A stretch of 64,000 nt of DNA from Verrucomicrobiota bacterium (GCA_021772675.1 JAJFLO010000040.1:5083-69082), one strand, 5' to 3'. Shown: positions 13,113 through 39,360, numbered from the stretch's first letter. The notes: generated from the letters alone by a model not told the origin. Program-made: numbers and translations.

Positions 13113-13134
13113 GATTTTTCCTTTTTTAAGTGGC

Positions 13135-14340: not shown

Positions 14341-14415
14341 AAGATTTTATTTAGTCGTGCGGGCAGTCCTGTCTGTGTAAAATTTTGTATGTTTGCTGTG
14401 CTGCCATGATTTCAT

Positions 14416-18341: not shown

Positions 18342-18720
18342 TGTGTGTTTTGAATGAAAAAAAGTTACCGGACCTGAATCCGTTCTAAATCCGTTTTTGG
18401 CGATAATATACCGATTGCTATCAGGTTTTCGACAGGTTTCTGAAAAATCGCCAACTGAAAGATTCATGGCGCGGCCATTCCTGTCTGTGTAATTTTTAAG
18501 ATTTGACTTGCAGACACGCGTTATCTCCCTCAGTCAGGAATGACCGAGTTACTGCAAGATATGTATTAATCCTTTTTTAATTTTTTAACAAGCGGTGATA
18601 CATATTCCTTAATTTGCCATTGTTCAAGAAATGCTTCAATTGTAATAGAAAGTTTATGCATAATGCAGATTAGGGCTGCCATTTTTCTAACACGTTAAAA
18701 AATATTAAATTTAAGTTTTC

Positions 18721-18867: not shown

Positions 18868-18896
18868 CTCTAATCGGTATAGCCAAATGAATCGTA

Positions 18897-19012
18897 TCGC
18901 AAAACAACTCGAAAACCGTTGTTGTTCCATCGGTTGTTCGGGTTGTTGTTGATGCGGGCAGAGCAGGAGCAGTTGTCTGGATTGTTGTTCCAGGCGCCGC
19001 CCCGCAAAACAC
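18897..19012 (-). other. DGR template region (TR)
   Basis: Begins 5 nt after the RT stop. The minus strand reads in target frame as [38 protein letters not shown], with 12 Asn codons (11 AAC, 1 AAT). It is homologous to the 3' ends of three genes. Confidence 0.9.
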
Positions 19013-19016
19013 ATTA

Positions 19017-20084
19017 CTAGTAGCTTGTCCCCTTAGTAAGTCGAACCCGACCAAGAACCCGGGTTCGCAGCCGGTAACTGCTGCCCCAACGAACATGACC
19101 AACCCAACTTTGAATGGATTGATGGATTCGATCTAGGGAAATCTCATTATTGTTATATTGACAACATAGTTTTTGTAAATGGCGTTGGTACCGACGGGAT
19201 TTCTGTTTTAATGGAATTCTGTGTGTCGGCCAATTACGAAATCCAAGAAACTGACACCCTTCCCTAACACGGAGAACCTGGCATTTTTTCGGGTGAATTT
19301 TCAACCGAAAAGATGCCAAATAGTGTTTGATTTTACTACAAATCTCCCACAACTGCTCTTTACTATGGCCGAATACTGCAAAATCATCCATATAACGCAA
19401 ATACGGAGGCTGGTGCAGTTGCTCTTTTATGAAATGGTCCAGTGGGTTAAGATAGACATTCGCGAATAATTGGCTGGTTAGATTTCCTATAGGTAGGCCT
19501 CGCCTGCGCATATAGGGTGTAAAAAGGTCATCACCTGGGAAATAATGTTCCATCTCCTCCTGAGGATTACTGTTACTTATGATTTTCTCGATCAGTTCCA
19601 GTGTTCGCTGACATCCGATTTTTCGCCTGATTCGCTGAAGCAGAATGTCGTGGTCTATTGACGGGAAGAATTTTTGGATATCACATTGTAACACCCAGGG
19701 AAATTGGCAGCTGTAATCCTGAAATTTCAGCAGTGCTTTATGAGTTCCTTTTCCGGACTGGCAGGCATAGGATGTCGTAATAAATGTTCGATCAAAAATG
19801 GGTTCAATGATTTGGCAGATTGCATGGTGTACCACCCGATCACGATAAGGCGCAGCGCTGATTAAACGCTCTTTCGGTTCAAATATCTGAAAGCTGCGAT
19901 AATTTCCAGGCTGAAAATATCCTTCCGTTAATTCTCGCTGGAGTGTTAAGAGTTCATTTTCGAGATGATATTCAAAACGCGCCGTTTCGGTACGAAAGCG
20001 TTTACCTCTGCGTGCAGTTCGGGAAGCGCGCAGGAGATTTTCGAAACATGTTATTTTCTGGAAAAGATTTTTTGCCGTTTTCAT
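19017..20084 (-). CDS. DGR reverse transcriptase
   Basis: 355 aa. Motifs are [39 protein letters not shown] (the DGR-typical I/LGxxxSQ) and the catalytic YMDDFAVF. No group II intron maturase or endonuclease extension is present. An avd-like gene and the TR are adjacent. Confidence 0.92.
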
Positions 20085-20434
20085 GGTTTACGTTGTTGTT
20101 TCAACCAGGCGCCCACCTCTGTGCCGATGTCATTGACAAGCTGTGCTGCATGGCCGTAACGTTTTGTGCTCAGACAACGCAGGTCTTTCGCCAGTCGCAG
20201 CGAAAACCGAAGCTGCTCAATCAGTAAATTGACTTTTTGCAAACTTGTTTGTTTATTTCGGCTAAATTTTGCTTCAATAAGCATCGTTAAAACATCACTG
20301 GCATTTGTTTCAATGCGATCGCCAAGGGTAAATTTTCGGGATCGTGGAAATTTATCTAGCATGGGGATTAACCAAAGAAGAAAATCATAGGTTTTGGTGA
20401 TTACGGACAATTCTTTTGGACACGGCATTATCAT
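20081..20434 (-). CDS. avd: Avd-like accessory protein (four-helix-bundle, 23S rRNA intervening-sequence protein family)
   Basis: 117 aa. [28 protein letters not shown] is typical of this family. The protein is basic, and it overlaps the RT start by 4 nt (ATGA). Confidence 0.85.
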
Positions 20435-20517: not shown

Positions 20518-23500
20518 CTAAACGTCTCGCAAAACAACTCGAAAACCGCCGAGGCTGATCCATCGGCCGCCCGGGTAGTAGTCGATGCGGGCAGAGCAGG
20601 AGCAGTAGTCTGGAGCGCTGTACCAGGCGCCGCCCCGCAAAACACGATATTTACCACGATCAGGACCATTTGGATCTTTCTTTTCTGAATTCTTGTAATA
20701 ATCTTCATTATACCAATCCCGGCACCACTCCCGGACATTGCCGACAAGATCGAAAACCCCCTCCGGTGTTTGGCCAGACGGATAACTGCCAACCGCTGAT
20801 GGTTTGCCGATATTCGATTTAGAGTAATTCGCATATTCTTCTGAAATTTTGTCATTTCTCCATGGATAAAGCGCATTGGATTGACCACGGGCGGCGTATT
20901 CCCATTCAGCCTCGGTCGGCAGTCGTACAATCGTTTTTTTCGATAGACCTGATCCAGTATGCAGATGTCTTGTCAACCAGTTGCAAAAGGCTTCGGCTTC
21001 ATACCATGAAACACCGGTAACGGGTTGATTCGGAGCGTTTGCTTCTTCATTGGTCCAATGTCGGGGTTCGTCCCATTCATTTGATTTACACCGCTTCCAG
21101 CCCTCTTTGCTCCATAATGTGTCGTCATTATATCCGCTTGCATCGATAAACATTTTGTATTGCCCGTTGCTAATCGGGTACCGGCTCATTCCAAACCGGG
21201 TTAACTCAACCTCATGACTGGCCTTTTCTCTTCCCATTGTAAAGCGGCCACCCGAAAGGTCAACCCACATTTCAGGATTAAAATCGCATACTCCTGGCCG
21301 TTGATCGCCTAGCCAACCCAGAATCAGGCCGGCATCAACGCGTTCACGGAATGCAAGTTTACCATGTGTGACCAATGCTGTCAGATGTTTATTTAACCGA
21401 CCTAAAAATTTTGGTCCGTTGCCTTCTTCATCCTTCTTTATCGAGCCTGCGCCAATGATGTGCGCTAGATTTCCAGCCCAGAAAATACCGCGCCAGTCTT
21501 CTTCTGATTCAGGTTCTCGGTCCTCTGGACATAAAGAATACGTCAACCCAAGGGCGGGGCGTTCATTTCCGTCATTAAAGAGTAGCTCTTCCATGCCAAG
21601 CTCAATGCATAATCGCCAATAATCTCCCTGTAAGAGTAATTCTTTGACCTTTTGATTAAAATTGAGTGTTCGTTTTGCCAGGTAGCAGCCTGCGAAATAC
21701 TCCTGAAATGTTCGATGAGGAAAGGCGTAGACCCTGTCAGTTTCTCCACCACGGCCATGCAGTAATCCTGATGTTGTATCGAAATAATTCAGTAATTTTA
21801 CAGCAGCTTCTCTGGGTTGCAGGACGATCTCTTCCAGGTTTTTTGTAAATATTTCGACTGCCGTGGCCCAGGGAATGTCAGAAATTTTTTCAGAATCCTT
21901 CCCCGCTTCATGGGCCACATAGCCAAGTTCCCATAACGGATAGAGCATTCGCGTTTCGTCCCTTAATCCAATGTCATCAAACAATGACATCTTCTGGCCG
22001 ATCCTGACTTCCTGCCAACGTTTCATCATCAGCATTGCAGCTTGATTGTACAGCGTCACTCGCTGCCGCGGCAGTTGCAGATTCGTTGCATGGACACTGG
22101 CCAATGTCGTGAGCAGCAGAGGATTTCTAACCATATCAACAGGAAGTTTGCCGACAGCCTGCTTCAGGTCATCAGTTTTTTCAGCTGACCAATCAATGGA
22201 TTTTCCAAGTCGATGCAGGGCGAGATACCAGTGATCAATGAAGTCATTTATTTGCTCCCTGCTGAATGGAGCGAGTGTGATATTACGGTAGGTTGGCAGC
22301 ACGGTATCCTTCACATAAGAAAGAACACGGCAAGTTACTATGATACGATTGCGCCGACAGCCGCCGGCAATGATTTCCAATGCTTTACAGAGAAGCAGTC
22401 GATCGTCCTTTGGCACTTCGTCAAGACCGTCAAATATCAACAGACACTGATCATCCTCCAAAAGGCGAAACAGTTCATGGCTAAAATCGGTCAGGTTATC
22501 CGAGTCTAATTTTTTCTGCAAATGCTTTTTTATGATGCGCATAAACTCACGCAGCCGCTGTTCTGGAGCACACCCAACATATTGATCCGCATTTTCTTCG
22601 TGCAGTGTTAGTAATAATTCCCGCAAGATGACGCGAATAGGAAAATAATGCCTATGGGACCAGCCTTTTAACGATTCAGAGTCCGAGTTGAGTTGATATT
22701 CTGCCAATTGCCATAAAAGATGATTGATAAATGAGGTTTTACCGGATCCCGGATCACCCAGCATAACAAGTAGTGGTTCGTTGGTCGTTGCCTCTAAAGC
22801 AGTGAGTGGCCGTGTTTCGTTTTCCCCAAAATGTAAATGATCATCTTTTTTATCGATAGTTTTTCCCTGTTTGTCAATGAAAGTCGTTGTATTTAACCCG
22901 ATATAAATTTTGTCCAGTGTCAGGCGAAGATCAGATTGTGGATCGCCACTTTTAGCGATATCCGCCAGAGGTAAAAGATTACAAACTATTGATAATTTTT
23001 CGAGATAACGTCTACGTAACACGCCCACCGGGATTGAAGGCGATTCTGGTTCAGTTGCAGTCGGAGTTTCATAGGGCGCTTCCGGCACATAATCACCCTG
23101 AATGTAACCGATGTGTTCATAACCGTGTTTGTCTTCGACCGGGAGTCGGCTCCACGTTAAACCGGTTAAATGAGAAAAATCATTGTTCTCGGTTAAATCA
23201 TCCTCAAGTTTGTGGTAAAACAGCATTGTCACAAATAATGCGGATCGGACTTTACAGCTTGACTGGAATTTTTTGAAATTTTTATCATCGATCAGCCGAT
23301 TTGCATCGGCCATTACCGAACTGTAGTATTGATCGCCAATAAGTTCTACATTACCATAAGCTAACACCAGACGCAGTGATAGGGGCAGGTCTTTACCTTT
23401 ACTACTTCCGTTGTATAATTCCAGTTTTTGGCGAAGTTGCTGAGTATATTCCATGGCAACCAGTGATGAAACGGCGTTAAATAAAATATAATACCCATCC

Positions 23501-23709
23501 CCTGTTGTTTCACGCGGGAACAGTTGTGAAAATTTGATTACCGGACTAATAAAAGTCCCGGCATCATCTATCAATTCCTGAAATTGCCTCATGACTGCCT
23601 TACTGTGAGTGTCATCATGGTAGCGTGATTTAAAGCCGACGATATCAATCAGCAGTATTGGAAACATTTCATTTTCTTTGATATTCATCCTACATTCTCC
23701 ATTTTTCAA
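20518..23709 (-). CDS. DGR target protein 2 (cyclase-like, NACHT, FGE/CLec with VR)
   Basis: 1063 aa, collinear with target 1 at high identity by eye. Motifs are FPILLIDIVGFKS, TTGDGYYILF, LGDPGSGKTSF and LLIFDGLDEV. Lies immediately upstream of avd on the same strand. Confidence 0.9.
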   Translation of the reverse strand: MKNGECRMNIKENEMFPILLIDIVGFKSRYHDDTHSKAVMRQFQELIDDAGTFISPVIKFSQLFPRETTGDGYYILFNAVSSLVAMEYTQQLRQKLELYNGSSKGKDLPLSLRLVLAYGNVELIGDQYYSSVMADANRLIDDKNFKKFQSSCKVRSALFVTMLFYHKLEDDLTENNDFSHLTGLTWSRLPVEDKHGYEHIGYIQGDYVPEAPYETPTATEPESPSIPVGVLRRRYLEKLSIVCNLLPLADIAKSGDPQSDLRLTLDKIYIGLNTTTFIDKQGKTIDKKDDHLHFGENETRPLTALEATTNEPLLVMLGDPGSGKTSFINHLLWQLAEYQLNSDSESLKGWSHRHYFPIRVILRELLLTLHEENADQYVGCAPEQRLREFMRIIKKHLQKKLDSDNLTDFSHELFRLLEDDQCLLIFDGLDEVPKDDRLLLCKALEIIAGGCRRNRIIVTCRVLSYVKDTVLPTYRNITLAPFSREQINDFIDHWYLALHRLGKSIDWSAEKTDDLKQAVGKLPVDMVRNPLLLTTLASVHATNLQLPRQRVTLYNQAAMLMMKRWQEVRIGQKMSLFDDIGLRDETRMLYPLWELGYVAHEAGKDSEKISDIPWATAVEIFTKNLEEIVLQPREAAVKLLNYFDTTSGLLHGRGGETDRVYAFPHRTFQEYFAGCYLAKRTLNFNQKVKELLLQGDYWRLCIELGMEELLFNDGNERPALGLTYSLCPEDREPESEEDWRGIFWAGNLAHIIGAGSIKKDEEGNGPKFLGRLNKHLTALVTHGKLAFRERVDAGLILGWLGDQRPGVCDFNPEMWVDLSGGRFTMGREKASHEVELTRFGMSRYPISNGQYKMFIDASGYNDDTLWSKEGWKRCKSNEWDEPRHWTNEEANAPNQPVTGVSWYEAEAFCNWLTRHLHTGSGLSKKTIVRLPTEAEWEYAARGQSNALYPWRNDKISEEYANYSKSNIGKPSAVGSYPSGQTPEGVFDLVGNVREWCRDWYNEDYYKNSEKKDPNGPDRGKYRVLRGGAWYSAPDYCSCSARIDYYPGGRWISLGGFRVVLRDV
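20527..20645 (-). other. DGR variable region VR2
   Basis: 119 nt. There are 17 substitutions relative to the TR, all at TR adenines, plus one extra codon inside the 3'-most AAC run. Confidence 0.9.
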
Positions 23710-23736
23710 ATAGACTTCGGTTTATTAAAATTCCAT

Positions 23737-26700
23737 TTAGATCAATTGCATCACAACACGAAAGCCAATGGTGTTCCAACTAGTTTTGGCTTTCGTTTGA
23801 TTGCGGGCAGTAACCTGGCAGCTGCCGGACCCATCTATCCAGGACCCGCCGCGCAGCGCTTTAAGATGATCTGGCTCACTACTCTGTACGATTTGATTAA
23901 TATCAGGTATAACGCTTAAATCCGGTTGCTCCCACCCGTTCAGGCACAATTCCCATATATTTCCCGCCATGTCCATGATGCCCTCCGGAGTCGCTCCGTC
24001 AGGATATAAGCCTGCCACCGTTGTGTGGCCCATCATTTCGTCACAATTTGCCCGATTTTTATTCGGTGTCTCATTGCCCCACGGATATCTCCTGCCACCC
24101 CGGCCTGCCACCCATTCCCACTCCATTTCCAGTGGCAGGCGAAACTGTCGCTGGCTCCTATTCTTATCGACGTCTTTTGCCTGCATTGTCAGCCATTGAC
24201 AATACTGCATCGCACTGTACCAGGAAATACCAATAACAGGTTGGTTATCTTCATTGAATTTTCGGTTCTCAAAATCCTTTGAATTATGGATTTGAACCTC
24301 TGCATCTGTAAAGGAATTCAGAAACGTCCGGTACCGCAGATTAGTGATGGGATATTTCGCTATATAGAGGTCGGAAATCGACACCTCTTTTACGGTGGCA
24401 GAAAAGCGAAATTGTCCGCCCGGTACAAAGATATATTCGGCATTATTTTCAATTGAATTAAAAAAGTGACTTTCTTTTGGCGCAGTCTTCGTATCTTGAG
24501 GACACTCTACACCCCATTTTGTAAGCAGTTCAGATGCTAGATTTCTCAACGATTTTTCCCCGTCATCTATTAACGACATGACCGCCGTAATGACACGTTC
24601 AGACGCATGGTGGCGCAGGCATTGCAGGGAATTATATCGCTTTCGCCAGGAATACCGTCTATCAGTCAACACCATGATAATGGGATCGATGGGTAACCGT
24701 ACAGATTCCCGAACCATTTGCAGCAGCAGTGGTGATGTCGCACCATCGTTGCCATCATGGGGGAGAAATAATTCAAGAAATTGCGGAAAAATAGCCGGTT
24801 CGGTCAGGCCGGCTGAAAAGAGAATGGTTTCCCGCCACCAATCGTCATGGAAGTTTGCCACCAATAGATCTGCCCGACCGCGATTGGCAATTTCGACAGC
24901 GGCAAGATACTCGCGAAATGATTTGTGTTGAAACATGTAGGTGTCATTTGATTTAACAAGGACCCCGGCGCGGTCACAGATATAGTTCAGAAATTGTGCC
25001 GATGAGATTTCGGGGTTGATTTTTTTCAACATGCCGGTGATATATGTCTCAATTTTTTTACCGGGCAATTCATCTGCATGTAGCTCGTCCTGCATCCAGA
25101 ACGATAAATTTTGGAGTATCTTTTTGGTTTCTGTTGTCGTCAGGAGCGGTTTAATCCGTTTTCTCCGATCGCGGTGATCGAGGAGATAGTTGATACTGCG
25201 GTTGTATAATAACATCCGGCCACCGGCAAGGCTGCCATGTTCCCGCCAGATAATCGCCATAATCTGTAGCAGCACCGGGATGCCGGCCATTTCCTTCAGC
25301 GAGCGGTTTCCATCCTCTGCCAGAAACGTGATAATATCATTGGCGTGAGTTGCGGACTCTTTCTTTAATGAGTCGCTGTTTTCTTCGTTGCTGCGTTCGG
25401 CAGGATCCAGCTCCGCTATGCTTACGGCATAAAACCAGTGAAGGAGGTATTCTTGTTGTTGATCGGAATTTAAATCGAGAACATTGGCACGGATGTGGGG
25501 CAATTTAAGGAAAATGCCTTCATGTTCATGATACCCGGTAAAGCGACAGGTGACGACAAAGACGGATTGATTATATACTGGAACGGCATGGTCAATCCAT
25601 CGGCAAATCTGCTTTCGCTTTTTCAGACTGCCGACTTCATCCAAACCATCAAGCAGCACCAGAATACCGGGTTCTTTCAACCAGTTTTTTAGTGTGCGTT
25701 TTGAAAAATTGAAATTTCTAATTTTAGCCCATTTCACCAGTGATTCGATGAAGGGCTGGTCCGGGTTAATTTCCCGGAGCGGCACCAGTAATGGGATAAG
25801 CGGTTTTTTGAGAGAAAGTTGATTCTGCCCGGAATTGTCGATGGAACAGATTTCTAAATAGCGCATCAGTGTGGTTTTTCCTGAACCCGGATCGCCGAGG
25901 ATAAGTATCGATTTAGAGTCCGCCATGGCTTGTGTCAAAAGTTGCCGGGGCGACAGTAAACGCTCAGTCTCTTCCTTCGGTTCTTTAATTTCAGGCAGAC
26001 TGTGACCGTATTCTGTAAGTCGAAGGGAAACAAATGCATCGAAAAGGTTTACAGAGATGTTCGCTGAAGACAGGAAACCAAATAAGTTAATGCGACCATG
26101 TTCAATGTGTATCGCTGCCAGATAGCGCTGTAGTGTCTTATCGTCATCAATTCCTGTTTCAGACGTGATCCTCTCGTCATTTACGTAGGCTATGTCATCC
26201 TGGTTATAACTTTCCTGAGACTGTAACTGTGACCAATTCAGTTTGGTGAGTTTTGATGTCAGTGGAGATTTTGTCAATTCACTCTCCAGCAAGTTATGAA
26301 AAATTGCGGTTGAAAACAAGATCGAATGCCCGTCACTGTATTCTTGATAGGATTTTAATTTTTCATCACGAACCAGGTGTTGTGCATCCGTGATCAGGGA
26401 GTCAGCATACTGGTTAATATCCAGGTCTGTCCGCTGCCAGGCCAGAATTAGACATAGTCTGAGTGGCGTGTTTACTCCATTGTGATGTGTGTTGTATTGG
26501 TACAGATTACTGCACAGGGCTTTAACAAAGACGAATGCGGTATCTATCGGCTGATTTTCCAAAAATAAATAATACCCGTTTATGGAATTTGTTTGCTTAA
26601 AGAACCGGGAAAACGGTGTATACGGTGAAATCATCTCTCCGGTGAAATCGATCAGGCTCTGGAGAACTTTTATGACGTGCATGCGTTCGAATTCGGTTTT

Positions 26701-28983
26701 GTAGATTGAGGAAAATCCGACAATATTTATCACCAGTAGCGGGCCATTGGCAGTTTTTTCGTTGTGAGTGATCAAGTGCCTGATTTCTAACGGCAGTTCA
26801 AGCAGTGCCCGTGTATTTCCTGATGCGTCCAGTCTGACGGCCTTTAAAATATCTATAACCGTTTGACCGCCCGGTACATTTATTAATATTTCGGGAAGTA
26901 ATATTTCAGCATTCTTCAAGTTATTTGCCATTCGCTCAGATATGGGCAGAGCCCCCTGAATCCAGAGAATGAGTCCGGATATAAGGGCATCATAGTCTTT
27001 TTTAAGTATTGGAAGAAACTCCTTCAATACTTCAGGATTGGCAAACATGACATCAATCAGCTCACATATCATCGCGACACGGTCTTGATGACCGGGGCTG
27101 GTATCATCCCATGTCCTGACCAGCAATTGATTGGCGTCTTCATAGGCGTGATCGTTTAGGTGCATGAAAAGTTTAAGCCGCTGTGGTATGGGGAACTGTT
27201 TTCCTGCCTTTTGCATATAGCCGCTATTGGCAAGAATCAGATGCGACTGTGATCTTGCTACTAATGCAAATCGTCTATTAATCATGGCCATGACAGCAAG
27301 TTCCTGCAGACGCACACTGTCACTGTTATTCAGTGCCGAAATGAGATTGTCGTAGTCGTCTATAGCCTCTTCTGTGCGATTTAAGTCGCATAATATCATG
27401 GCCCGATAGAGTTTTGCCCGATAGAGGTCTTCCTCTGCCTGCGAGTCCTGATTTTTTTCAAATTCCCTGATCGCCGTTTCAAAGGTGGCGGCGGCGGCTT
27501 CTATCTGGTTCATTTCAACTAAAATTAACCCCCTGGCTAATGTGATCTTACCGGTTAATAGATCCGTATTAGTTCCATGTTGTGTGGCAATGAGTTGGCC
27601 CAGTTCGTTGACAGTACTTAATGCTTTTTGTTGCGTTTTCTCATGAGCGGCCAGAAGCACGGCCTGTTGGAGTAAAATATCAATATTGTCGGGAGTTATG
27701 CGCGCAGAGTGTTTTTTCAGAAAATCAACGTCAATAGCGTCGAACTCAGTTTTTGTTATGGCTGCTGAATAATAAGTCAGGCTTTCATTTTGCGCGTCTA
27801 TGATGCGGTGTTGCAATTCTGAGGTATCATACCAGCGCTGAAGAAAATTCACGATCAGGGGTAATGGCCGGTTTCGACCTTCTTTGATATCAAGCATGAG
27901 CCGGAGCAGCGGTTCATTTAATTCATAACAAGTCGTTCGTCCAACCTGAGTTTTACGGACAAATTCACCTTTATGAAGATCGGTTAGCTGACGGGAAACC
28001 ACCTGTGACGTGAGAATGGTATATCGGGCAATCTCTTTTACTGCAATGGCCCGGCCATGATGATCGGCAATCGCTCTTAAAATCTTGTTCTGCTGTGGTG
28101 ACAAACGATCCAGTCGCTGCTGATAATATGGAGTGAGCTCACGATCACAGAAGCAAATGAAGGGAGGTACCAGGTTTGCCAGTCCGTTGTCATCAAGAAA
28201 AATACTCAACATCGCCAGCAGTCTGTGATTGCCGCCAGTAAGGTCATAGACCGCATTTATACGTGGAATCGCAGTCTCTTTATTTAACTCAATCGCGAGT
28301 TGGGGATTGCCGTTTGCCGATGCCAGACTGGCCAGAAACGATTGGGTGCCGTCGGGGGATAACGGCCTTAATGTATGGATATTAAAAAAACCGTAAAATG
28401 GATGATCTTCCTTGCCGTTTTGATATTTTGAGGTTGCTGACGCAAGTAGTGATACCGATGAATGGGTTTGAAGAAAGCCTCGCAGTGGGCCAATCTGGCC
28501 TTCGCTCTGTAAGACGGTGAAGATATCATTGAGATTTTCGATTATCAACAGTACGGCCCGCTGGTTTATCGTTTCCTCCAGCATTTCCGTAACCAATTCA
28601 AGTGCGGCGGGCATCGTTAAACCGGTAATTTTTTCAATGATTGTTGTCCGTGCTTCTCCAGCAGCACATATTACCGTCATAATGAAATCCAGTAATGAAC
28701 TGATGCCGCGTTCCTCTTCTGAGAACGGTATAATTAACACATTTTCGTCATTTTGAGAGTAATGTGGTATGGAGTGACGAATATAGGCCAGGAGATGGGT
28801 TTTTCCTGATCCTCGCGGACCGATAATCAAATGGTGATTGGATGATTGAGAACCCGCTATCGACTGGATATCCGCCATTATCGTTTCTGCCAGTTTTCGA
28901 CGGTCCCGGGTAAGCAGTTTGTCAATAACATCCAGTGAATTATTTTGCGGACTGAAAATTAAGGGAAGTGAATAATTATCCAT
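23737..28983 (-). CDS. 1748-aa multidomain STAND protein: AAA+ (ORC/Cdc6-like) ATPase with HTH, TPR-like region, degenerate cyclase-like domain, NACHT, FGE-type domain without VR
   Basis: N-terminal Walker A is IIGPRGSGKTHLL. TPR-like helical repeats follow. The cyclase-like block reads LLVINIVGFSS / NSINGYYLFL. NACHT motifs are LGDPGSGKTTLM and ILVLLDGLDEV. C-terminal FGE motifs are GISWYSAMQYCQWLT, LPLEMEWEWVAG, NIWELC and ALRGGSW. The 3' end has no nucleotide homology to the TR. Confidence 0.85.
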   Translation of the reverse strand: MDNYSLPLIFSPQNNSLDVIDKLLTRDRRKLAETIMADIQSIAGSQSSNHHLIIGPRGSGKTHLLAYIRHSIPHYSQNDENVLIIPFSEEERGISSLLDFIMTVICAAGEARTTIIEKITGLTMPAALELVTEMLEETINQRAVLLIIENLNDIFTVLQSEGQIGPLRGFLQTHSSVSLLASATSKYQNGKEDHPFYGFFNIHTLRPLSPDGTQSFLASLASANGNPQLAIELNKETAIPRINAVYDLTGGNHRLLAMLSIFLDDNGLANLVPPFICFCDRELTPYYQQRLDRLSPQQNKILRAIADHHGRAIAVKEIARYTILTSQVVSRQLTDLHKGEFVRKTQVGRTTCYELNEPLLRLMLDIKEGRNRPLPLIVNFLQRWYDTSELQHRIIDAQNESLTYYSAAITKTEFDAIDVDFLKKHSARITPDNIDILLQQAVLLAAHEKTQQKALSTVNELGQLIATQHGTNTDLLTGKITLARGLILVEMNQIEAAAATFETAIREFEKNQDSQAEEDLYRAKLYRAMILCDLNRTEEAIDDYDNLISALNNSDSVRLQELAVMAMINRRFALVARSQSHLILANSGYMQKAGKQFPIPQRLKLFMHLNDHAYEDANQLLVRTWDDTSPGHQDRVAMICELIDVMFANPEVLKEFLPILKKDYDALISGLILWIQGALPISERMANNLKNAEILLPEILINVPGGQTVIDILKAVRLDASGNTRALLELPLEIRHLITHNEKTANGPLLVINIVGFSSIYKTEFERMHVIKVLQSLIDFTGEMISPYTPFSRFFKQTNSINGYYLFLENQPIDTAFVFVKALCSNLYQYNTHHNGVNTPLRLCLILAWQRTDLDINQYADSLITDAQHLVRDEKLKSYQEYSDGHSILFSTAIFHNLLESELTKSPLTSKLTKLNWSQLQSQESYNQDDIAYVNDERITSETGIDDDKTLQRYLAAIHIEHGRINLFGFLSSANISVNLFDAFVSLRLTEYGHSLPEIKEPKEETERLLSPRQLLTQAMADSKSILILGDPGSGKTTLMRYLEICSIDNSGQNQLSLKKPLIPLLVPLREINPDQPFIESLVKWAKIRNFNFSKRTLKNWLKEPGILVLLDGLDEVGSLKKRKQICRWIDHAVPVYNQSVFVVTCRFTGYHEHEGIFLKLPHIRANVLDLNSDQQQEYLLHWFYAVSIAELDPAERSNEENSDSLKKESATHANDIITFLAEDGNRSLKEMAGIPVLLQIMAIIWREHGSLAGGRMLLYNRSINYLLDHRDRRKRIKPLLTTTETKKILQNLSFWMQDELHADELPGKKIETYITGMLKKINPEISSAQFLNYICDRAGVLVKSNDTYMFQHKSFREYLAAVEIANRGRADLLVANFHDDWWRETILFSAGLTEPAIFPQFLELFLPHDGNDGATSPLLLQMVRESVRLPIDPIIMVLTDRRYSWRKRYNSLQCLRHHASERVITAVMSLIDDGEKSLRNLASELLTKWGVECPQDTKTAPKESHFFNSIENNAEYIFVPGGQFRFSATVKEVSISDLYIAKYPITNLRYRTFLNSFTDAEVQIHNSKDFENRKFNEDNQPVIGISWYSAMQYCQWLTMQAKDVDKNRSQRQFRLPLEMEWEWVAGRGGRRYPWGNETPNKNRANCDEMMGHTTVAGLYPDGATPEGIMDMAGNIWELCLNGWEQPDLSVIPDINQIVQSSEPDHLKALRGGSWIDGSGSCQVTARNQTKAKTSWNTIGFRVVMQLI

Positions 28984-30195
28984 TTACCAACCTTTATGAA
29001 CGTAGTCCCACCAACGTCGTACTAGTGGTAGTTTAAAACGCCATGAATTCTGATTGTCCCGGAGCAGATAATGATCGTCTAAAAGTAATTTAAGCATCAC
29101 ACCGGCATATTCTTTATCGATATCTTGATAAGTTTCATCATATCGCAGTATCTTCACCAGCGCATCGAATTCCAAACCGTGTTCGAATTGACAGAGTTTT
29201 CTTAGTATGGTTCGTGCCAGCTCGGCTTTTTCATCCGGATAGTAGGCAGCCAGGCGACTTTTGTAATAATTGAACTCAGCCGGGTCCCCGTGCGCATCAA
29301 ATAATTGTTCTGGAATCGCTTCTATTATAGCCACTGTCCATGGGGACTCTTCGTTCTCCGACATCCATTTTACTATATGCTGTATGTAGAAGGGGACAAA
29401 GCAGGCGGTGTTGGCAATCGCTTCGGCACACTTGGCGATTGAATCACAAGGAATGGCTTCTCCCCGGATAAGACTGCCGGCAAGATACGTGCCGTCTTCA
29501 GAAGATAAAGGCGGAAGTTCAATTGGCGGTATATCATTGACGGGTTGTCCGGTATAACCAAATGATGTGAGTTTATCGAGGACGATATGTAATCCGAGGG
29601 AACCACAAAATAACATGCGGAAATTTGGATGTTCATGTCGAAGCGCACGCAAATCATCAAGGATGCGAATGGCATCATGCGCGTGATTATTTTTGATTAA
29701 TCCATCAAGAAAATGTGGCAGTTCGTCAATGATTAGAACCACCATGCGATCATCTGCGTTCCGAACAGCGTCAGCAACAGTTTCTTCGAGAAAAGTACTC
29801 CAGCTGGTTACTTCAGGAAGGCGTTGAGTTCCGATAGTTTGGCCCTGTAATTTTTGTGCCTGCCGCAGGAACCAGTCTTTTGCTCGTTGTAATCGCCGAT
29901 CATCAAATAGATTTTCGATATGGATTTGCTGATTAATTCGCCAGATTAGTTCAGGTGCCGATTTGTCACGTTGTGCGTCGATAAACAAGGTAACGGCAGA
30001 TTCGGGTGCGATAGCGCGGGCGAGTTGAATCAGCCATGTTTTTCCCATACGGCGTTCTGAGAGAATGCGCAGACTTCCGGATTCCAGCCGCCGCCACAAG
30101 AGCTGTGCCAGCTTCTCTCTTCCAAAAACGAATTCGGAGGCCTCCCCTACGCTTGGATTGCCAAACTTGAGCTTTGTCGGTTTATAATTCATCAT
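28984..30195 (-). CDS. ATP-binding protein (AAA-type, archaeal-ATPase/DUF234-like)
   Basis: 403 aa. P-loop-like ERRMGKTWLI and Walker B VVLIIDELPHF. Its stop codon abuts the start codon of the 1748-aa gene (TAA then ATG with no spacer). Confidence 0.7.
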   Translation of the reverse strand: MMNYKPTKLKFGNPSVGEASEFVFGREKLAQLLWRRLESGSLRILSERRMGKTWLIQLARAIAPESAVTLFIDAQRDKSAPELIWRINQQIHIENLFDDRRLQRAKDWFLRQAQKLQGQTIGTQRLPEVTSWSTFLEETVADAVRNADDRMVVLIIDELPHFLDGLIKNNHAHDAIRILDDLRALRHEHPNFRMLFCGSLGLHIVLDKLTSFGYTGQPVNDIPPIELPPLSSEDGTYLAGSLIRGEAIPCDSIAKCAEAIANTACFVPFYIQHIVKWMSENEESPWTVAIIEAIPEQLFDAHGDPAEFNYYKSRLAAYYPDEKAELARTILRKLCQFEHGLEFDALVKILRYDETYQDIDKEYAGVMLKLLLDDHYLLRDNQNSWRFKLPLVRRWWDYVHKGW

Positions 30196-30278
30196 TAATC
30201 GTACGACCTTTTTATCGTACGATAGATTCCGTCAATTGATTTTGCAAGCGCGTTCGGAAATTTTTTGCATCAAAAAAA

Positions 30279-30612
30279 TGTCCCGATACGGACGTTCGAA
30301 CCACAGGCTTACCAGCCCGAACCGGGACGGTGTTTTATTTGGCCCGATCGTGATAACTCACATTTTAGGTTTCATTTTCGATTTGTTATTCAAATATGGT
30401 TAACTTGCAATCAAAACTGAGTAACGCAGTTCCACGCAAAGCGAGACTAAATCTGTTATCTAGCTGGCTGTGCAAATCACAAGACATCTCAGCCAGGAAT
30501 GGCCGAGTTACTTTAACAAATCAAAACTGAAACCTAAAATGTGGGTAATAACCGAACACAGGAACAAATCATACGTCTTGGTGATTACCGTTAATTCTTT
30601 CGGGCATGGCAT
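30279..30612 (-). pseudogene. remnant of a second DGR cassette: avd 5' stub fused to post-TR sequence and a terminator copy, interrupted by a MITE
   Basis: 30612 downward encodes MPCPKELTVITKTYD, versus intact Avd [17 protein letters not shown]. At about 30567 homology jumps to the sequence found at 18806-18826. 30279-30350 matches 18726-18800. Confidence 0.65.
30356..30546. repeat. family A composite MITE (third copy)
   Basis: Outer inverted repeats are ACTCACATTTTAGGTTTCATTTTCGATTTGTTA ... TAACAAATCAAAACTGAAACCTAAAATGTGGGT. The REP arm is CTCAGCCAGGAATGGCCGAGTTAC. It is inserted within the cassette remnant. Confidence 0.65.
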
Positions 30613-30712
30613 AATATTAGATTAATGAGCTTCTTACAAAAGTCTTTTCGGCATCATTTCTTGCTCAAAATTCTGCTTGAACATACTTTTGCAAAAAAGC
30701 TCTGATGTTTTA

Positions 30713-33700
30713 TTAAAATTTTTTTTCCGCGCTTCGCGCGACGGAAAAGGGTAAAAAGATTAAAAGAAAAAAGGGTAAAACTAAACGTCTCGCAAAACAA
30801 CCCGAAAACCGAGGAGGCTGCCATCGGCCGCCCGGGTCGTAGGCGATGCGGGCAGAGCAGGAGCAGCTGTCTGGACCGTAGTTCCAGGCGCCGCCCCGCA
30901 AAACAGTCCAATCAGAATCTTTCCGCTTAATAGCAATATCCGACAAATTCGTTCTGTCTGCCAGTTGAAATTCAGGGTCATCCCTTCGATTCATGCACCA
31001 TTCCCAAACATTGCCTGCCATATTCATAACGCCCTCAGGCGTTGCTCCCTCAGGGTATGATCCCACCGGTGTTGTTTGACCCACTTTACTACCAAAATTT
31101 GCTCGAGTCTTATCCGGTGTCTCTGGACCCCATGGGTACTTTCGATTACCATTTCCTGCAATCCATTCCCACTCAACTTCGGTCGGCAGGCTGAATCTGG
31201 CATTTGGATTATCGAAATGGTCCATTGGCCAAGTTTCAGTAAGCCAATGACAATAGGCCATGGCGCCATACCAGTTAACACCGACTACCGGCTGTTCGTC
31301 ACCACCAAAACGTCGATCATCAAGGTAGTCGGACATATACTTTTTGACTTCATTACTGGACAGCGACGCAATAAACTGACGATAGTGTTTATTCATAACT
31401 GGATATTTGGCAACATACAGATTTGAGACAGACACCTTTTTCTTTGTCACGGGAAACTGATAGCTGCCCCCAGAAATGAAGATATAGTTTGTTTTATCTG
31501 TAACTGAACTAACTATTGACGCCTGTTTACCAGCTTTTTTAGATGGCACATCTACATTCCATTCTGCGAGCAATTCAGATGTCAGATTTCGTAATAGCGT
31601 TTCTTTGTCATTTGATATTGATTTCACAGCCGTAATAACCCGTTCAGAGGGATGGTTGCGAAGACACTGTAGGGTATTATAGCGTTTACGCCAGGAATAC
31701 CGGTGATCGGTCAGTACCGCAATAATAGGGGCGATGGGTAATCGAACGGATTCCTGAACCATTTGCAGCAACAATGGCAAGGTTGCGCCGCCATTGTGAT
31801 CATCAATCAGAAATTCTGTGAGAAATTCAGAAAAAACGGCCGGTTCAGTCAGACCAGCTGAAAAGAGAATGGTTTCCCGCCACCAGTCATCGTTAAAATT
31901 TTCGACCAATAAATCTGCCAGACCACGATTGGCAATTTCCACAGCCGCCAGATATTCCCGGAACGACTTATGCTGGAACATATAGGAATCATTTGATTTA
32001 ACCAGAACTCCGGCGCGATCACGCATATAATTAAGGAATTCTGTCGGCGTGATTTTGGGGTTGATTTCTTCCAGCATACCGGTGATATACTCCTCTATTT
32101 TGTTTCCCGGCAATTCATCCTTTTTTAGTTTTGACTGCATCCATAACGATAAATAGCGAAGTATTTCCCTTGCTTCTGCTGCATTGACTAGTGGTTCAAT
32201 ATGTTTTTTTCGGTCACGGTGATCAAGAAGATAATTTATGCTGCGGTCATAGAGCGATACGCGACTGCCGGACAGGCTGCCTTGTTCGCGCCAGATAATT
32301 GCCATGATCTGCAACAATACTGGGATGCCCGCCATATCCCTGAATGATTGATTTTCATCCTTACCCAAAAAATTCATTATGTCATCGGCATGTATAGTTG
32401 CCTGAATTTCTAATTCATTTTTTTTCACTGTACTATTATTGAGTTTTTCAGCATGAACTTCTTCTAAAGCAGATGCCGTAAACCAATGAATAAGGAAATC
32501 CTTCTGCTGGTTTTCGTCCAAATCATGGACTTCAGCCTGGATATGTGATCTGTTCAGGAATATACCGTCTGCCTGGCTGTATCCTGTAAAACGGCATGTC
32601 ACAACAAATATGGACTCACCGTATGCGGTTGCCGCGTTATCAATCCATCGGCAGACGGATTTTCGATTCTCCAGGCTGCTGACCTCATCAAGCCCATCAA
32701 GCAACACCAGTAAACCAGGCTCGTGCAGCCAATCTTTTAGTATATCTTTAGAAAGTTCCAGATTTCGATTAATTGCCCATACTGCCAGTGAATTGACGAA
32801 AGGTTGCTGAGGATCAATTTCACGTAACGGAATCAACAGAGGAATCAGCGGCTTTTTCAGAGAAAGTTGTTCACGTTTTGAATCATCGATAGAGCAGATT
32901 GCCAGATAACGCATCAACGTGGTTTTTCCTGAGCCGGGTTCGCCCAGAATCAGTATTGATTTGTCTTCGGTGATAGCTCGTACTAAAAGTTGTCGGGGTG
33001 ATACCAGTCGATTGTTTGTTTCCTTTTCTACCCTGATTTCAGGAAAGTCACGACCGGATTCAGTTAGGCGCAAAGATACAAATGCATCAAGAAGATTAAC
33101 AGGGATATTCGCAGAAGACAAAAATCCAAACAAGCTGATACGACTATGTTCGCGGTTTACCACTTCAAGATAATTTCGCAGTAATTTATTTTCGCCGTCC
33201 TTACGTTTGGCTGCTTTCGATTTTACCCGACGAGATTGGCTGGCAGTCGGTATGTAGTCACCTTGTATATATCCGATGTGTTCTTGGCCGTGTTTATCCT
33301 CTACCGGCAAACGACTCCATTTTAATTCCCTTAAATGAGAGTAACCATTGGGTTGATCAAATTCCTCCTTAAGTTTATGATGAAATAACATTGTCGAAAA
33401 TAGAGCCGACGGTTCTTTGGACTCATTCATAAATTGCTTAAAATTTTTGTCATCTATCAATCGATTCGCGTCGGCCATAACCGAGCTGTAGTATTGATCA
33501 CCAACCAGTTCGACAGTACCGTAAGCTAAAACCAGACGCAGTGACAAAGGCAGGTCTTTGCCCTTTTCTTCTAGATTATATCTTGTCACTTCCTGACGAA
33601 GGTGTTGAGTATATTCCAGAGCATCCATGGTGGAAATTGTTTTTAGTAAAATATAATACCCATCCCCTGTTTTTTCGCGTTCAAACAGTTTTGAAAACGG

Positions 33701-34285: not shown

Positions 34286-34361
34286 GCCAAAGTAGCTCAG
34301 TTGGTAGAGCAATTCACTCGTAATGAATAGGTCAGCGGTTCAAATCCGCTCTTTGGCTCCA
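34286..34361 (+). tRNA. tRNA-Thr (anticodon CGU), CCA encoded
   Basis: The cloverleaf was folded by hand. Acceptor is GCCAAAG/CTTTGGC, the D-arm reads GCTCAGTTGGTAGAGC, the anticodon stem is ATTCA/TGAAT with loop CTCGTAA, and the T-arm is GCGGTTCAAATCCGC. Ends with discriminator T and CCA. Confidence 0.9.
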
Positions 34362-35842: not shown

Positions 35843-36370
35843 ATGACAGGACAACGTATTGGCTATATCAGGGTTAGTACCTTTGACCAGAACACAGATC
35901 GTCAATTGGAAGGTATACAAGTTGATCGTATTTTTACGGATAAAGGTATTCACCGGGAACAACTGGAAATATTAATAACTTTTGTTCGAAGTGGTGACAC
36001 CGTTGTCGTACACAGCATGGATCGGTTAGCACGTAATCTCGACGATTTGCGTCGCATTGTTCAATTACTCACGAGAGATGGGATTCGCATCGAGTTTATC
36101 AAGGAAAATCTGTCTTTTACAGGCGAAGATTCGCCAATGGCAAACTTAATGTTGTCTGTAATGGGTGAATTCGCTCGAAAAACTGGATTGGACTGGTCAG
36201 TCGTTTCCCGCCACTTAAAGTTACTAAACCTGCCCTTTCCTATTTTAGAATATCTAGAAAAGAATCAAACGCCTGAAGTATTAAAACAATGTCACCTAAA
36301 ATATTTATGCAGCCTTACAAAATTATCGGAGAAAGAATGTATTATAAGATTTTCTACAGATATCGGATAA
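35843..36370 (+). pseudogene. serine recombinase (resolvase/invertase) fragment
   Basis: The N-terminus IGYIRVSTFDQNTDRQL...GDTVVVHSMDRLARNLDDL...FTGEDSPMANLMLSVMGEFA is canonical. The conserved DK-x-SGK block is shortened (DKGIHREQL). After GEFA the sequence departs from the expected EFER..IRERQ helix into unrelated text. No C-terminal HTH is present. Confidence 0.6.
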
Positions 36371-37704: not shown

Positions 37705-39360
37705 ATGTTGATCGTTAAATTTAAAAATGTGGACAATATATGTAGAATTTGGTCTATCTGTTTAACTCTAATATTATCGCAGTCATTGGGACAAAAGATA
37801 TTGTCACCTCTGATTTTTGAAGATGAAGATGACGGCAGTCTTTTATCCCAAATTGTTTTTATCGTTAATGAATTTCGCTTTGTTGGGAATACCGTTATTG
37901 ACGAATTGGAACTAGCCAAGGCCGCTGAACCATTTACCAATCGCGAAGTTTATCCTGAAGAATTAGAGGAATTACGACATAAAATTACGGTACTTTATCT
38001 TGATAAAGGGTACATCAATTCCGGGGCAGTCATTAGAGATCAAAACATAGAAAATGGCGTCATAAAAATTGATATTATCGAAGGCTCTCTTACTGAAATA
38101 AATATTGAAGGCAATAATCGCCTTCGCTCAGATTATATAAGCAAACGAATTATGTTGGGAGCTGGTCCTCCATTGAATGTAAACGAGCTCCAGGATAAAA
38201 TCAAGATTTTAACCTCAAATGCTAATATTAGGCGTATTAATGCCGAACTGAAACCGGGAGCAACACCAGGGAAAAGTTATCTTGACATTAAAGTGGATGA
38301 AAATCATCCTCAAACACTAACCTTTAATTTAAATAATCACCGTACCCCTTCTGTCGGCGCAGAACGACTATTTCTGACAACGTCCTATCAAAATGTAACG
38401 GGAATTAGCGATCAGTTTGACCTTACCTACGGCATTACCAAAGGAGATTTTGAAGACTTCGATCTTGCCAACCTTGATGATATTGAAATTTCCTATACGG
38501 TTCCACTTAACTCTTTCGACACAACATTAGAATTAGCCTTCAGAAGAAGTGATTTTTCCGTCATTGAGGAGCCATTTGCAGACCTAAACATTGAAAGTGA
38601 GTCCGAAAATTTTAGCGTTACCATAAATCATCCGGTTCTTAAATCTTATCATGAAGAATTAATCCTGTCACTTAGTGCAGAACTTCGTCAAAGTAAAACG
38701 TTTTTACTTGGTCGACCATTTTCATTTTCAGTTGGCACGGATGATGGACGATCTCGTGTCGCAGTATTCCACTTAATTCAGCATTGGGTTAAACGAAGTT
38801 TGTCAAATGTAATCGCAGCACGATCATCATTTAATTTTGGTATCGACGCATTTCATGCGACGAAAGCAGGAAATACTACTCGAGATGGTAAATTCATGTC
38901 ATGGCTAGGCCAATTTCAATATGTTCAACGTTTAGGCAGTACAGCAAATCAATTGATATTCAAGAGTACTGTCCAATGGACGGACGATGAATTATTGTCA
39001 TTGGAACAGTTTAGTCTGGGTGGCTCAGGAAGCATAAGAGGATACCGTGAAAATCAATTGGTCCGGGATAAAGCTCTGGTCACTTCAATTGAGCTTCGTT
39101 TCCCAATTTTATTCGATCGGCGAGGCAAAGAAATATTACAATTGGCGCCATTTTTAGATTACGGTCGAGCAACGAATAATGGTTCCGGCACCCACGAATT
39201 TAATAATCTGACAAGCGCGGGATTGGGAATATTATTCACACCATTTGAGCAACTTAATTGTCAGCTATACTGGGGCTATCCATTTAGGGAAATCGATCGC
39301 GATGAAAATGACCTACAGGATAAAGGAATTCATTTCAATATTAGCTTTTCGACTTTTTAA
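37705..39360 (+). CDS. ShlB/FhaC/HecB-family two-partner-secretion outer-membrane transporter (TpsB) with POTRA domains
   Basis: 551 aa. It has a signal-peptide-like N-terminus and POTRA-like segments (FRFVGNTVI..., YLDKGYINSGAVI). The C-terminal beta-barrel carries LGGSGSIRGYRENQL and a terminal ...GIHFNISFSTF. Confidence 0.85.
   Translation: MLIVKFKNVDNICRIWSICLTLILSQSLGQKILSPLIFEDEDDGSLLSQIVFIVNEFRFVGNTVIDELELAKAAEPFTNREVYPEELEELRHKITVLYLDKGYINSGAVIRDQNIENGVIKIDIIEGSLTEINIEGNNRLRSDYISKRIMLGAGPPLNVNELQDKIKILTSNANIRRINAELKPGATPGKSYLDIKVDENHPQTLTFNLNNHRTPSVGAERLFLTTSYQNVTGISDQFDLTYGITKGDFEDFDLANLDDIEISYTVPLNSFDTTLELAFRRSDFSVIEEPFADLNIESESENFSVTINHPVLKSYHEELILSLSAELRQSKTFLLGRPFSFSVGTDDGRSRVAVFHLIQHWVKRSLSNVIAARSSFNFGIDAFHATKAGNTTRDGKFMSWLGQFQYVQRLGSTANQLIFKSTVQWTDDELLSLEQFSLGGSGSIRGYRENQLVRDKALVTSIELRFPILFDRRGKEILQLAPFLDYGRATNNGSGTHEFNNLTSAGLGILFTPFEQLNCQLYWGYPFREIDRDENDLQDKGIHFNISFSTF

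Follow-up and report, generated by a model that had tools for sequence, protein, structure and literature searches.

Sensors that resemble nucleotide-binding, leucine-rich-repeat receptors (NLRs) and are diversified by diversity-generating retroelements (DGRs) were described recently, and to our knowledge nothing is known about how the output of such sensors is controlled. "Antigen sensor" proteins of this kind, which combine a STAND NTPase with a FGE or C-type lectin (CLec) domain under DGR diversification, are presented by Kaur et al. 2021 (PMC8195603) and by Dore et al. 2024 (PMC10907252). The effector list for STAND-FGS proteins in PMC8195603 gives TIR, DRHyd, calcineurin, caspase, trypsin, kinase, and FHA, with no cyclase named there; the words "cyclase," "paralog," and "non-diversified" are absent from the main text of PMC10907252. 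The supplements of both papers may list such architectures. Examined here was a stretch of 64,000 nucleotides (nt) from a Verrucomicrobiota bacterium (GCA_021772675.1, JAJFLO010000040.1:5083-69082), called the window, with positions counted from its first nucleotide. The window holds a DGR with three target genes (targets 1 to 3) and a fourth, larger paralog of these targets, an open reading frame (ORF) for a protein of 1748 amino acids (aa) referred to as the giant, which is preceded by a small ATPase gene referred to as gene A. In its anatomy and history, the giant is very probably an in-frame, end-to-start fusion of a complete NTPase protein (B), found elsewhere as the product of the gene that follows A, with a paralog of the DGR-diversified sensors. 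The N-terminal cyclase-like domain of this paralog carries Asn at both positions where the family has metal-binding Asp. The source genome was binned from a metagenome (7.3 Mb, 605 contigs, 86% complete), and the runs containing this DNA are biofilm metagenomes; the finding rests on this one bin. The CarA protein encoded in the window shares 88% identity with one other protein, and its best named matches, with 67-69% identity, come from metagenome-assembled genomes of Lentisphaerae/Lentisphaeria.

Like the STAND-FGE sensors of PMC10907252 and PMC8195603, the giant locus has an N-terminal effector, a NACHT-type NTPase, and a C-terminal FGE domain, and several copies stand in one genome beside avd, a reverse transcriptase (RT), and a template repeat (TR), together with duplicated or degraded DGR parts and repeats resembling miniature inverted-repeat transposable elements (MITEs). 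Unlike those sensors, the giant is not a target of the TR, its effector appears to be dead, and a whole second NTPase-TPR protein stands at its N terminus. Its effector domain shares the fold and homologous Asp, Arg, and Gly positions with class III cyclases, among them pseudo-heterodimers in which one site is degenerate (C1/C2 of mammalian adenylyl cyclase and the alpha/beta pair of soluble guanylate cyclase), which provide a precedent for a catalytically incomplete domain that pairs with a complete one (PMC6005667). However, the C2 and beta subunits keep a complementary set of Asn, Arg, and Lys residues (PMC6005667), whereas the giant domain has lost conserved Arg and Lys positions as well and thus cannot complement a partner. 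Inactive cyclic nucleotide monophosphate (cNMP) cyclase domains in effector positions of bacterial conflict systems were described by Kaur et al. 2020 (PMC7159879), where they are read as dominant-negative regulators, nucleotide binders, or decoys. The giant is like these in carrying a putatively dead cyclase-type domain within a multi-NTPase conflict-type system. It differs from the systems as described there in that its locus is without vWA, MoxR, and VMAP, in that the cyclase-like family is a different one, and in that the dead copy shares its locus with three paralogs of active type and is joined to a STAND-type pair.

The N-terminal 745 residues of the giant were traced to a two-gene cassette. 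Gene A is single-copy in this genome and has 69 homologs of about 400 aa, with 22 to 51% identity. A scan of one genome per species recovered 14 loci with an A relative, and at 10 of these (L001 to L007 and L010 to L012) the gene after A encoded a homolog of giant residues 1 to about 290-741, placed in overlap with A or after a gap of ≤2 nt from the A stop codon; at the remaining four loci, the contig ended at A or ≤174 nt beyond it (three loci) or a 42-residue partial match was seen (one locus). These stand-alone B proteins (431 to 1057 aa) contain a P-loop, a MarR-type winged helix-turn-helix (wHTH), and a variable number of TPR repeats, and they matched the giant over about 290 to 770 residues with 26 to 43% identity (blastp, E between 3e-139 and 4e-38). 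An alignment of 23 B proteins has 25 invariant columns, and the giant keeps every one of them, including GPRGxGKTH and E149-N150. The C-terminal motif of B proteins, GDxKALLxLPLExRxLI followed by 5 to 12 residues, was complete in the giant (...GNTRALLELPLEIRHLITHNEKTANG), and directly after it the giant reads PLLVINIVGF, which is the first strand of the sensor N-terminal domain. With a complete B end meeting a sensor first strand, the giant therefore consists of B continued, end to start, by a sensor paralog that lacks only its leader of about 12 residues. Since the N-terminal part is B, the second gene of the cassette, gene A is the usual partner of B and not a newcomer.

The sources of A-B loci include Marinimicrobia (Neomarinimicrobiota), Sumerlaeota, Hydrogenedentota, a Synechococcales cyanobacterium, and actinobacteria, and the other A-B pairs were neighbored by unrelated housekeeping genes (e.g., those for MetRS, the DNA polymerase III delta' subunit, and pyruvate kinase), without a DGR. 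The B protein of the cyanobacterial locus, L007, ends in a TIR domain (residues 724-831, E 3.1e-18); the C terminus of B can therefore bear an effector, and the giant has the sensor paralog in this slot. At one further locus (L004, 3224-5562, in a metagenome-assembled genome of Hydrogenedentota), the A-B pair adjoins, back to back, genes for a kinase plus FGE-sulfatase protein and for an HNH endonuclease; kinase plus FGE-sulfatase is a typical DGR-target architecture, and this was the only other A-B pair seen beside an FGE protein. We know of no described function for the A-B pair, and an uncatalogued ATPase cassette present across at least five phyla is a by-product of this analysis in its own right.

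Pfam matches in the N-terminal part of the giant were to ORC-CDC6-like (E 9.3e-12), to AAA_16 and AAA_22 across residues 33-154, to MarR_2 (a wHTH; residues 294-346, E 3.6e-6), and to TPR_16 (residues 482-547, E 7e-4), and PADLOC-DB 2.0 matched only short P-loop or wHTH stretches (mad8, E 4.1e-10, residues 47-118; PDC-M05A, E 1.1e-5). Walker A of the B module (GPRGSGKT) occupies residues 55-62, and the family-invariant E149 and N150 are present. In the NACHT domain, Walker A (GDPGSGKT) and Walker B (LLDGLDE) are intact and invariant across the four paralogs. The original prediction, made from the sequence alone, had held that the protein repeats the cyclase-like, NACHT, and FGE core of the DGR targets, which Pfam and a four-paralog alignment bear out. 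It had also described about 750 gained N-terminal residues with a P-loop, a winged-helix-like segment, and TPR-like repeats; all three features were recovered by Pfam, but they are not added domains and instead make up one whole pre-existing gene. Its further statement that the TAA of the 403-aa ATPase gene directly abuts the ATG of the giant agrees with the ORFs and with the border sequence, ...GGT TGG TAA ATG GAT... (TAA and ATG at 28981-28986). Gene A and the giant ORF share one reading frame with this single TAA between them, so read-through of the codon would yield a protein of about 2150 residues; in L001 to L003, A and B overlap by 4 nt in different frames, and the shared frame may be chance. 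Separate production of the sensor part from an internal start was considered and is unlikely: the junction offers no in-frame ATG, as the one contained in GCC AAT GGC belongs to another frame, and the first Met in frame after it, M768, already lies within the domain.

The fusion was present in assembled contigs of two samples of one study, X1 (possibly the source sample) and X2. In X1, an 8726-nt contig spans 23600-30325 with 0 differences, and two X2 contigs, also with 0 differences, span the junction and both Asn codons (278 nt, 26526-26803) and the TAA/ATG site (296 nt, 28887-29182). The fused state was not found elsewhere. A search with residues 1-745 among proteins of 961-3059 aa (8000 scored candidates) returned 54 proteins including the giant, and 0 of the 53 others had a NACHT or FGE-sulfatase domain; a junction fragment (residues 600-900) searched in 41 genomes, namely, the genome of the window (G000) and 40 relatives, matched in full only in the window's own genome, and in the related genome G004 only the cyclase-like half of the fragment was matched.

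Assignment of the sensor N-terminal domain relied on structure and profile comparisons. A profile of the four window copies gave chance matches only among PDB sequences (an OTU protein at E 0.16 and saporin at E 0.87), and with sequence searches silent, fold and profile-profile methods were needed; a DUF7886 match (E 0.047) in a Pfam search at E ≤ 10 was rejected as spurious. AlphaFold2, given 38 sequences (the four window copies and 34 short family members), modeled the giant's own domain with a predicted local distance difference test (pLDDT) score of 82.2 and a predicted template modeling (pTM) score of 0.81. All Foldseek matches listed for this model were class III adenylyl or guanylyl cyclase catalytic domains (E from 1.2e-5). 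Likewise, 50 of the 50 entries shown by VIA-align were class III cyclases (Z 12.5-14.4; root mean square deviation 3.0-4.1; 155-184 aligned residues), with identity to solved cyclases of only 8-16%. The same genome holds 16 matches to PF00211 (Guanylate_cyc) elsewhere, and hhalign of the family against eight of these domains gave a probability of 87% (E 3.9e-6, 103 columns). The alignment paired the D of the family motif DIxGF with the D of FSDIxGFT, the D of GDGYY with the D of IGDA, and family R111 and G117 with the R and the last G of IRIGINTG, respectively. Two metal-binding Asp and a phosphate-binding Arg, in this order, are given for class III cyclases in Table 1 of PMC6005667. The alignment stops short of the C-terminal half, in which cyclases have the ribose Asn and a second Arg and Lys, so family R136 and K192 (H869 and S925 in the giant) are equated with cyclase Arg and Lys by order and spacing only. 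As modeled, the block in the giant keeps the class III cyclase fold.

Conservation of the domain was then counted over 92 aligned domain stretches from 90 proteins, a family set gathered with the profile of the four window copies from 1.84 billion representatives at E ≤ 0.001. The first Asp column (family D20) holds Asp in 79 stretches, Asn in 1, Gly in 1, Ser in 0, and a gap in 11 (79 of 81 residues are Asp), and the second (family D69) holds Asp in 78, Asn in 2, Gly in 1, Ser in 1, and a gap in 10 (78 of 82). The giant has N753 and N802 at these columns and is alone among the 90 family representatives in having Asn at both; judged by these counts, chance variation does not account for the loss of both Asp. 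In the four-paralog alignment, the motifs of the targets are DIVGF and TGDGYYI and those of the giant are LVINIVGF and SINGYYLF, as the original prediction had noted for INIVGF and INGYYLF against DIVGF and GDGYYI, and its proposal that the replaced Asp are cyclase metal ligands holds in the hhalign comparison, in which N753 and N802 fall on both Asp columns. The damage, as read from the alignment, extends well past the two Asp to about ten further conserved residues: family T67 (67/81) is S800 in the giant, G68 (79/82) is I801, the neighbor of N802, R111 (76/83) is C844, G117 (81/84) is Q850, E120 (58/85) is D853, D124 (63/84) is N857, R136 (78/81) is H869, K192 (63/68) is S925, H193 (54/68) is Y926, and G199 (52/65) is A932. 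Target 3 has the family residue at both Asp positions and at G68, R111, G117, R136, K192, and H193. Core residues kept by the giant are P748, G756, F757, G803, Y804, Y805, A816, L827, N831, L847, F895, and W917. With both Asp, the phosphate-binding Arg, and about ten other residues lost, the domain of the giant is therefore regarded as a pseudo-enzyme.

Identity between the giant and target 3, its closest paralog over the C-terminal 1000 residues (62-70% in the NACHT and helical parts), varied strongly by region. In the cyclase-like domain, the giant and target 3 are 33.7% identical and target 3 is 65-68% identical to targets 1 and 2; the corresponding values are 61.3% versus 15% in the linker, 61.6% versus 25-26% in NACHT, 69.5% versus 24-26% in the helical part, and 45.0% versus 31-33% in FGE. 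Because these identities differ so strongly from region to region, the locus is a mosaic. In Tajima relative-rate tests of the giant against target 3, with an outside relative (P0073) as the outgroup, the cyclase-like domain had 49 changes unique to the giant and 16 unique to target 3 (chi-square 16.75, P = 4e-5), compared with 40 and 29 in the middle part (P = 0.19) and 32 and 22 in FGE (P = 0.17). By this test, faster evolution appears confined to the cyclase-like domain, and NACHT and FGE appear to evolve at ordinary rates. The P0073 domain is 48-50% identical to those of targets 3 and 1 and 31% identical to that of the giant, and its NACHT is of the target 3/giant type (42-43%). As the P0073 domain is nearer to targets 3 and 1 than to the giant, the giant domain is a long branch and not simply an older lineage. 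The same identities led to rejection, as a full explanation, of a giant domain "native" to the target 3/giant NACHT lineage combined with a recent import of the domain by target 3.

The 3' end of the giant was compared with the DGR template over the 116-nt TR core. The variable regions (VRs) of the three targets are 83-86% identical to the TR, with mismatches at TR adenines in 19/20, 16/16, and 16/17 cases (total, 51/53). The giant 3' end is 58.6% identical, and 14 of its 48 mismatches fall at TR adenines and 34 at non-A positions. With only 14/48 mismatches at adenines versus 51/53 in the VRs, the giant 3' end is therefore not a VR, and its resemblance to the TR is at the level expected of homologous coding sequence. 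The claim that the FGE 3' end has no nucleotide similarity to the TR was thus overstated, although its substance, a non-diversified gene end, stands with the mismatch pattern. The downstream sequence common to the three targets is missing from the giant, and neither a further copy of the giant 3' end nor another TR-like copy was found in the genome (86% complete). X1 and X2 contigs are identical over 23621-24522, which is a weak point, as contigs drop rare variants. From these sequence comparisons, the giant paralog is no longer a DGR target.

Gene A was modeled with a pLDDT of 91.6 and matched Pfam AAA_22 (E 4.6e-6). The best Foldseek matches were the archaeal AAA+ ATPases 2fna and 2qen, followed by ORC/Cdc6, the NB-ARC domains of plant NLRs, Apaf-1, and CED-4. 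Gene A shares a three-part NOD-like fold with archaeal ATPase_2 (2fna, 2qen), ORC/Cdc6, and the NB-ARC of Apaf-1, CED-4, and plant NLRs. On the basis of the model, it is a bare NOD-type module (P-loop domain, helical domain, and winged helix) and, unlike Apaf-1, CED-4, and plant NLRs, is without a sensor or effector domain. Searches of gene A against PADLOC and NCBIfam gave no match, its profile found nothing below E 0.1 among PDB sequences, and in the ESM Atlas it matched AAA_22, AAA_35, or ATPase_2 clusters only. B matched ORC-CDC6-like and ATPase_2-type Pfam models, and the B profile matched only TPR proteins and the SmtB wHTH among PDB sequences. That A and B might be paralogs was rejected, as BLASTP found no significant similarity between them (best E 0.31). 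Three complex-prediction runs of A with B residues 1-420 scored 0.58, 0.45, and 0.00 (median, 0.45), and the best of 3 controls scored 0.00; contact agreement between runs was at least 0%, and partner pLDDT was at least 81. The mark applied to these predictions is passed by 116/157 solved complexes and 2/215 mismatched pairs, but passes with a score of ≤0.60 come from only 18/157 of the former and from both of these mismatched pairs.

Across the 90 representative clusters of the cyclase-fold family, the domain is N-terminal in most full-length members. In 15 of 19 scanned members, it is joined to a NACHT, NB-ARC, or AAA-type NTPase; most of these proteins end in TPR or FGE, and the domain is combined once with TIR and once with a kinase plus FGE. 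One member (P0130, 643 aa) has two cyclase-like domains in tandem (residues 3-124 and 230-360), recalling pseudo-heterodimeric cyclases. In another (P0132, 1514 aa), the domain is internal (residues 751-946), after a TCAD9-containing N terminus and before a kinase and an FGE domain. An uncatalogued family of cyclase-fold effectors, with 90 representative clusters, is a second by-product of the analysis in its own right.

All genes of interest lie on the minus strand, and the layout of the locus is given in Table 1. The giant gene is flanked by two live targets of one DGR. The degraded remnant between target 3 and gene A (repeat families D14 and D15) contains a 59-nt remnant of the avd 5' end (30557-30615) that is 78% identical to the live avd, a high-copy repeat (30348-30588; depth 127 versus about 9), and an orphan copy (30270-30357, 85% identical) of an element of roughly 85 nt located after the live TR; neither an RT nor a TR is present in the remnant (30262-30615). 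The live post-TR element folds as a long hairpin followed by a U-run (fold z -2.96), and the orphan copy folds more weakly (z -1.58). An Rfam search of 12000-36000 matched a tRNA alone, and the post-TR element therefore matches no Rfam family. In a promoter and terminator scan of 23500-30800, counts were close to the shuffle expectation. Degradation of redundant DGR parts by MITE-like repeats after duplication is described by Dore et al. 2024 (PMC10907252), and the history of this locus fits that duplicated-then-degraded picture.

Table 1. Features of the sensor locus, in 5' to 3' order of the minus strand, with positions in the window
Feature	Position	Strand	Remarks
Target 3	33865-30713	-	First in order; active-type cyclase-like domain and VR kept
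Degraded DGR remnant	about 30615-30262	-	Between target 3 and gene A
Gene A	30195-28984	-	P-loop ATPase of 403 aa; ORF of 1212 nt
Giant ORF	28983-23737	-	1748 aa; frame of 5247 nt
B module, giant residues 1-745	26749-28983	-	P-loop, MarR-type winged helix, TPR-like repeats, C-terminal motif at about 715-745
Fusion junction, ...LEIRHLITHNEKTANG / PLLVINIVGF...	26734-26781	-	B end meets first strand of cyclase-like domain
Putative pseudo-cyclase domain, residues 746-960	26104-26748	-	Predicted class III cyclase fold; degenerate active site
N753 codon, AAT	26725-26727	-	First metal-binding Asp position
N802 codon	26578-26580	-	Second metal-binding Asp position
C844 codon	26452-26454	-	Phosphate-binding Arg position of IRIGINTG motif
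NACHT NTPase, residues 1026-1184	25432-25908	-	PF05729, E 2.4e-16
FGE-sulfatase / C-type-lectin-like domain, residues 1514-1744	23752-24444	-	PF03781, E 1.1e-34; not a VR
Target 2	23709-20518	-	After giant ORF
avd	20434-20081	-	NCBIfam Avd, E 1.3e-31
RT	20084-19017	-	RVT_1, E 4.9e-29
TR	19012-18885	-	Repeat family D5 and TR/VR alignment; live DGR core is 18885-20434
Target 1	17780-14598	-	Last in order

Other features of the locus were recorded alongside. Close to the end of the target 3 VR (30779-30906), a 2-nt gap and a 3-nt insertion in its alignment with the TR add up to a net length change of +1; the closing residues of target 3 are therefore RFSGCFARRLVL... where GFRVVLRDV and a stop codon are expected, and the ORF extends 66 nt (30713-30778) beyond the stop position of targets 1 and 2. 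An X1 contig (30497-30790) carries the identical end sequence, and target 3 may be freshly inactivated. An 88-nt repeat unit with the core TCTCAGCCAGGAATGACCGAGTTAC forms a 7-copy tandem array adjoining a Y1/IS200-like transposase gene (13717-14340), with single copies dispersed across the DGR locus (repeat coordinates, 13068-13782, 14415-14529, 18467-18552, and about 30488-30520). The repeat looks like an element of the repetitive extragenic palindrome (REP)/MITE type with its own transposase resembling REP-associated tyrosine transposases (RAYTs). The block of DGR and sensor genes (14000-34400) has a G+C content of 0.42-0.46, compared with 0.35-0.40 in the flanks, and its end adjoins a tRNA gene (34286-34358, plus strand) and a serine-recombinase (resolvase) gene (35843-36370), which suggests that the block is an island acquired as one unit. 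Additional genes in the window encode kinase-WD40, TPR-CHAT, and sigma-70 region 2 plus FHA proteins and a two-partner-secretion pair (ShlB-type transporter and TPS-domain protein); together, these occupy 53875-57657, 61781-63943, 52220-53329, 37705-39360, and 59323-61686.

Conserved residues are retained in the B and NACHT NTPases and in the FGE domain, which evolve at ordinary rates, and the giant is therefore a maintained protein and not a decaying one. Together with gene A, it brings three NTPase-type modules (A, B, and NACHT) close to one another. The fused anatomy and its history, as stated above, are very probable. The full account, in which anatomy, history, and mode of action are taken together, is given about an even chance of being correct, and its last part, that the giant works as a noncatalytic adaptor or regulator, is put forward tentatively as the likeliest role. 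A regulatory or scaffold partnership with the variable sensors, which the original prediction had suggested, is a candidate role only. As an adaptor or regulator, the giant would produce no nucleotide signal. Through a fixed lectin-like tip and the NACHT domain, it would assemble in a ligand- and NTP-dependent manner, with this assembly physically coupled to the ATPases A and B. The dead cyclase fold would be retained as a surface for pairing, dimers being the working form of class III cyclase domains, and it may pair with other copies of the giant or with the active domains of the diversified sensors. In class III cyclase dimers, each of the two sites draws residues from both chains (PMC6005667), and in a mixed dimer, both shared sites would be put out of action by a partner that has neither the Asp set nor the Arg/Lys set. 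With both sites of the mixed dimer disabled, the giant should therefore, if pairing occurs, restrain the sensors in a dominant-negative or threshold-setting manner. A more specific proposal makes the giant a hub or brake, holding the active cyclase-like domains of the sensors in inactive mixed dimers with its dead fold, tied to A-B, and so setting the threshold for release, with NACHT perhaps coassembling with that of target 3; we consider this unlikely as it stands.

The locus may also be explained without regulation of one sensor by another. The giant may be a self-contained sensor of fixed specificity, which recognizes an invariant ligand with its own FGE tip and signals through B and A, with no cross-talk and with the dead fold as a linker. 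This is possible but somewhat doubtful. The giant owns the full set of parts with NACHT, FGE, and B intact, the C terminus of B is an effector slot elsewhere (the TIR domain of L007), and A-B pairs are autonomous in other phyla, among housekeeping neighbors and without a DGR; however, a linker is not expected to retain a packed fold of 200 residues (pLDDT 82) with a conserved core, and the gene is placed between two live targets of the same DGR, although neither point is decisive. Alternatively, a small deletion or stop loss may recently have joined B to a redundant, already failing sensor copy as a neutral accident, so that the giant is a pseudogene in the making. The singleton state of the fusion, the decay elsewhere in the locus (the degraded avd/TR cassette upstream and the frameshift at the VR end of target 3), and the fit of active-site loss and a faster rate to relaxed constraint would all agree with such an accident, which nevertheless seems quite improbable given a 5247-nt frame without a stop codon, acceleration limited to the cyclase-like domain while NACHT and FGE evolve like those of target 3, a dead domain that is still modeled confidently at 34% identity, and the intact state of all NTPase motifs. 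There is very little chance that B and the sensor paralog are two genes united by a misjoin or a missed stop codon. The bin has 605 contigs, and the region is rich in paralogs and repeats, but the 8726-nt X1 contig is without differences over 23600-30325, the independent low-depth X2 contigs span the junction and the TAA/ATG site without differences, and the junction unites complete domains in frame.

Several points weigh against the reading of the giant as a maintained, noncatalytic adaptor or regulator with a dead cyclase fold. Asn can weakly bind Mg2+, which leaves room for residual nucleotide binding. None of the four window copies matched PF00211 at E ≤ 10, and "cyclase" is a label for a fold and a few residues that is neutral as to activity, no family member having a known product. 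The domain of target 3 looks recombined with the target 1/target 2 type, given its 65-68% identity there and only about 25% in NACHT; the relative-rate result presumes that P0073 is a fair outgroup, and recombination in target 3 could inflate the contrast. The fusion is real but so far a singleton, without a comparative sign of selection for the fused state. Contact between A and B is predicted with weak support, as a weak pass with one of the three runs at 0.00.

As it stands, the locus combines three active, hypermutating sensors with one frozen copy that has a putatively dead effector and is joined to a widely conserved NOD-type ATPase pair. If the giant is indeed a hub or brake, it would be a bacterial counterpart of paired sensor/helper NLRs, with a pseudo-enzyme as the adaptor, and a safeguard against self-reactive DGR variants. 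If the frozen copy regulates the variable ones in any manner, it would be a clean example of a pseudo-enzyme as an adaptor and would represent a tolerance or threshold device for a bacterial receptor-diversifying system.

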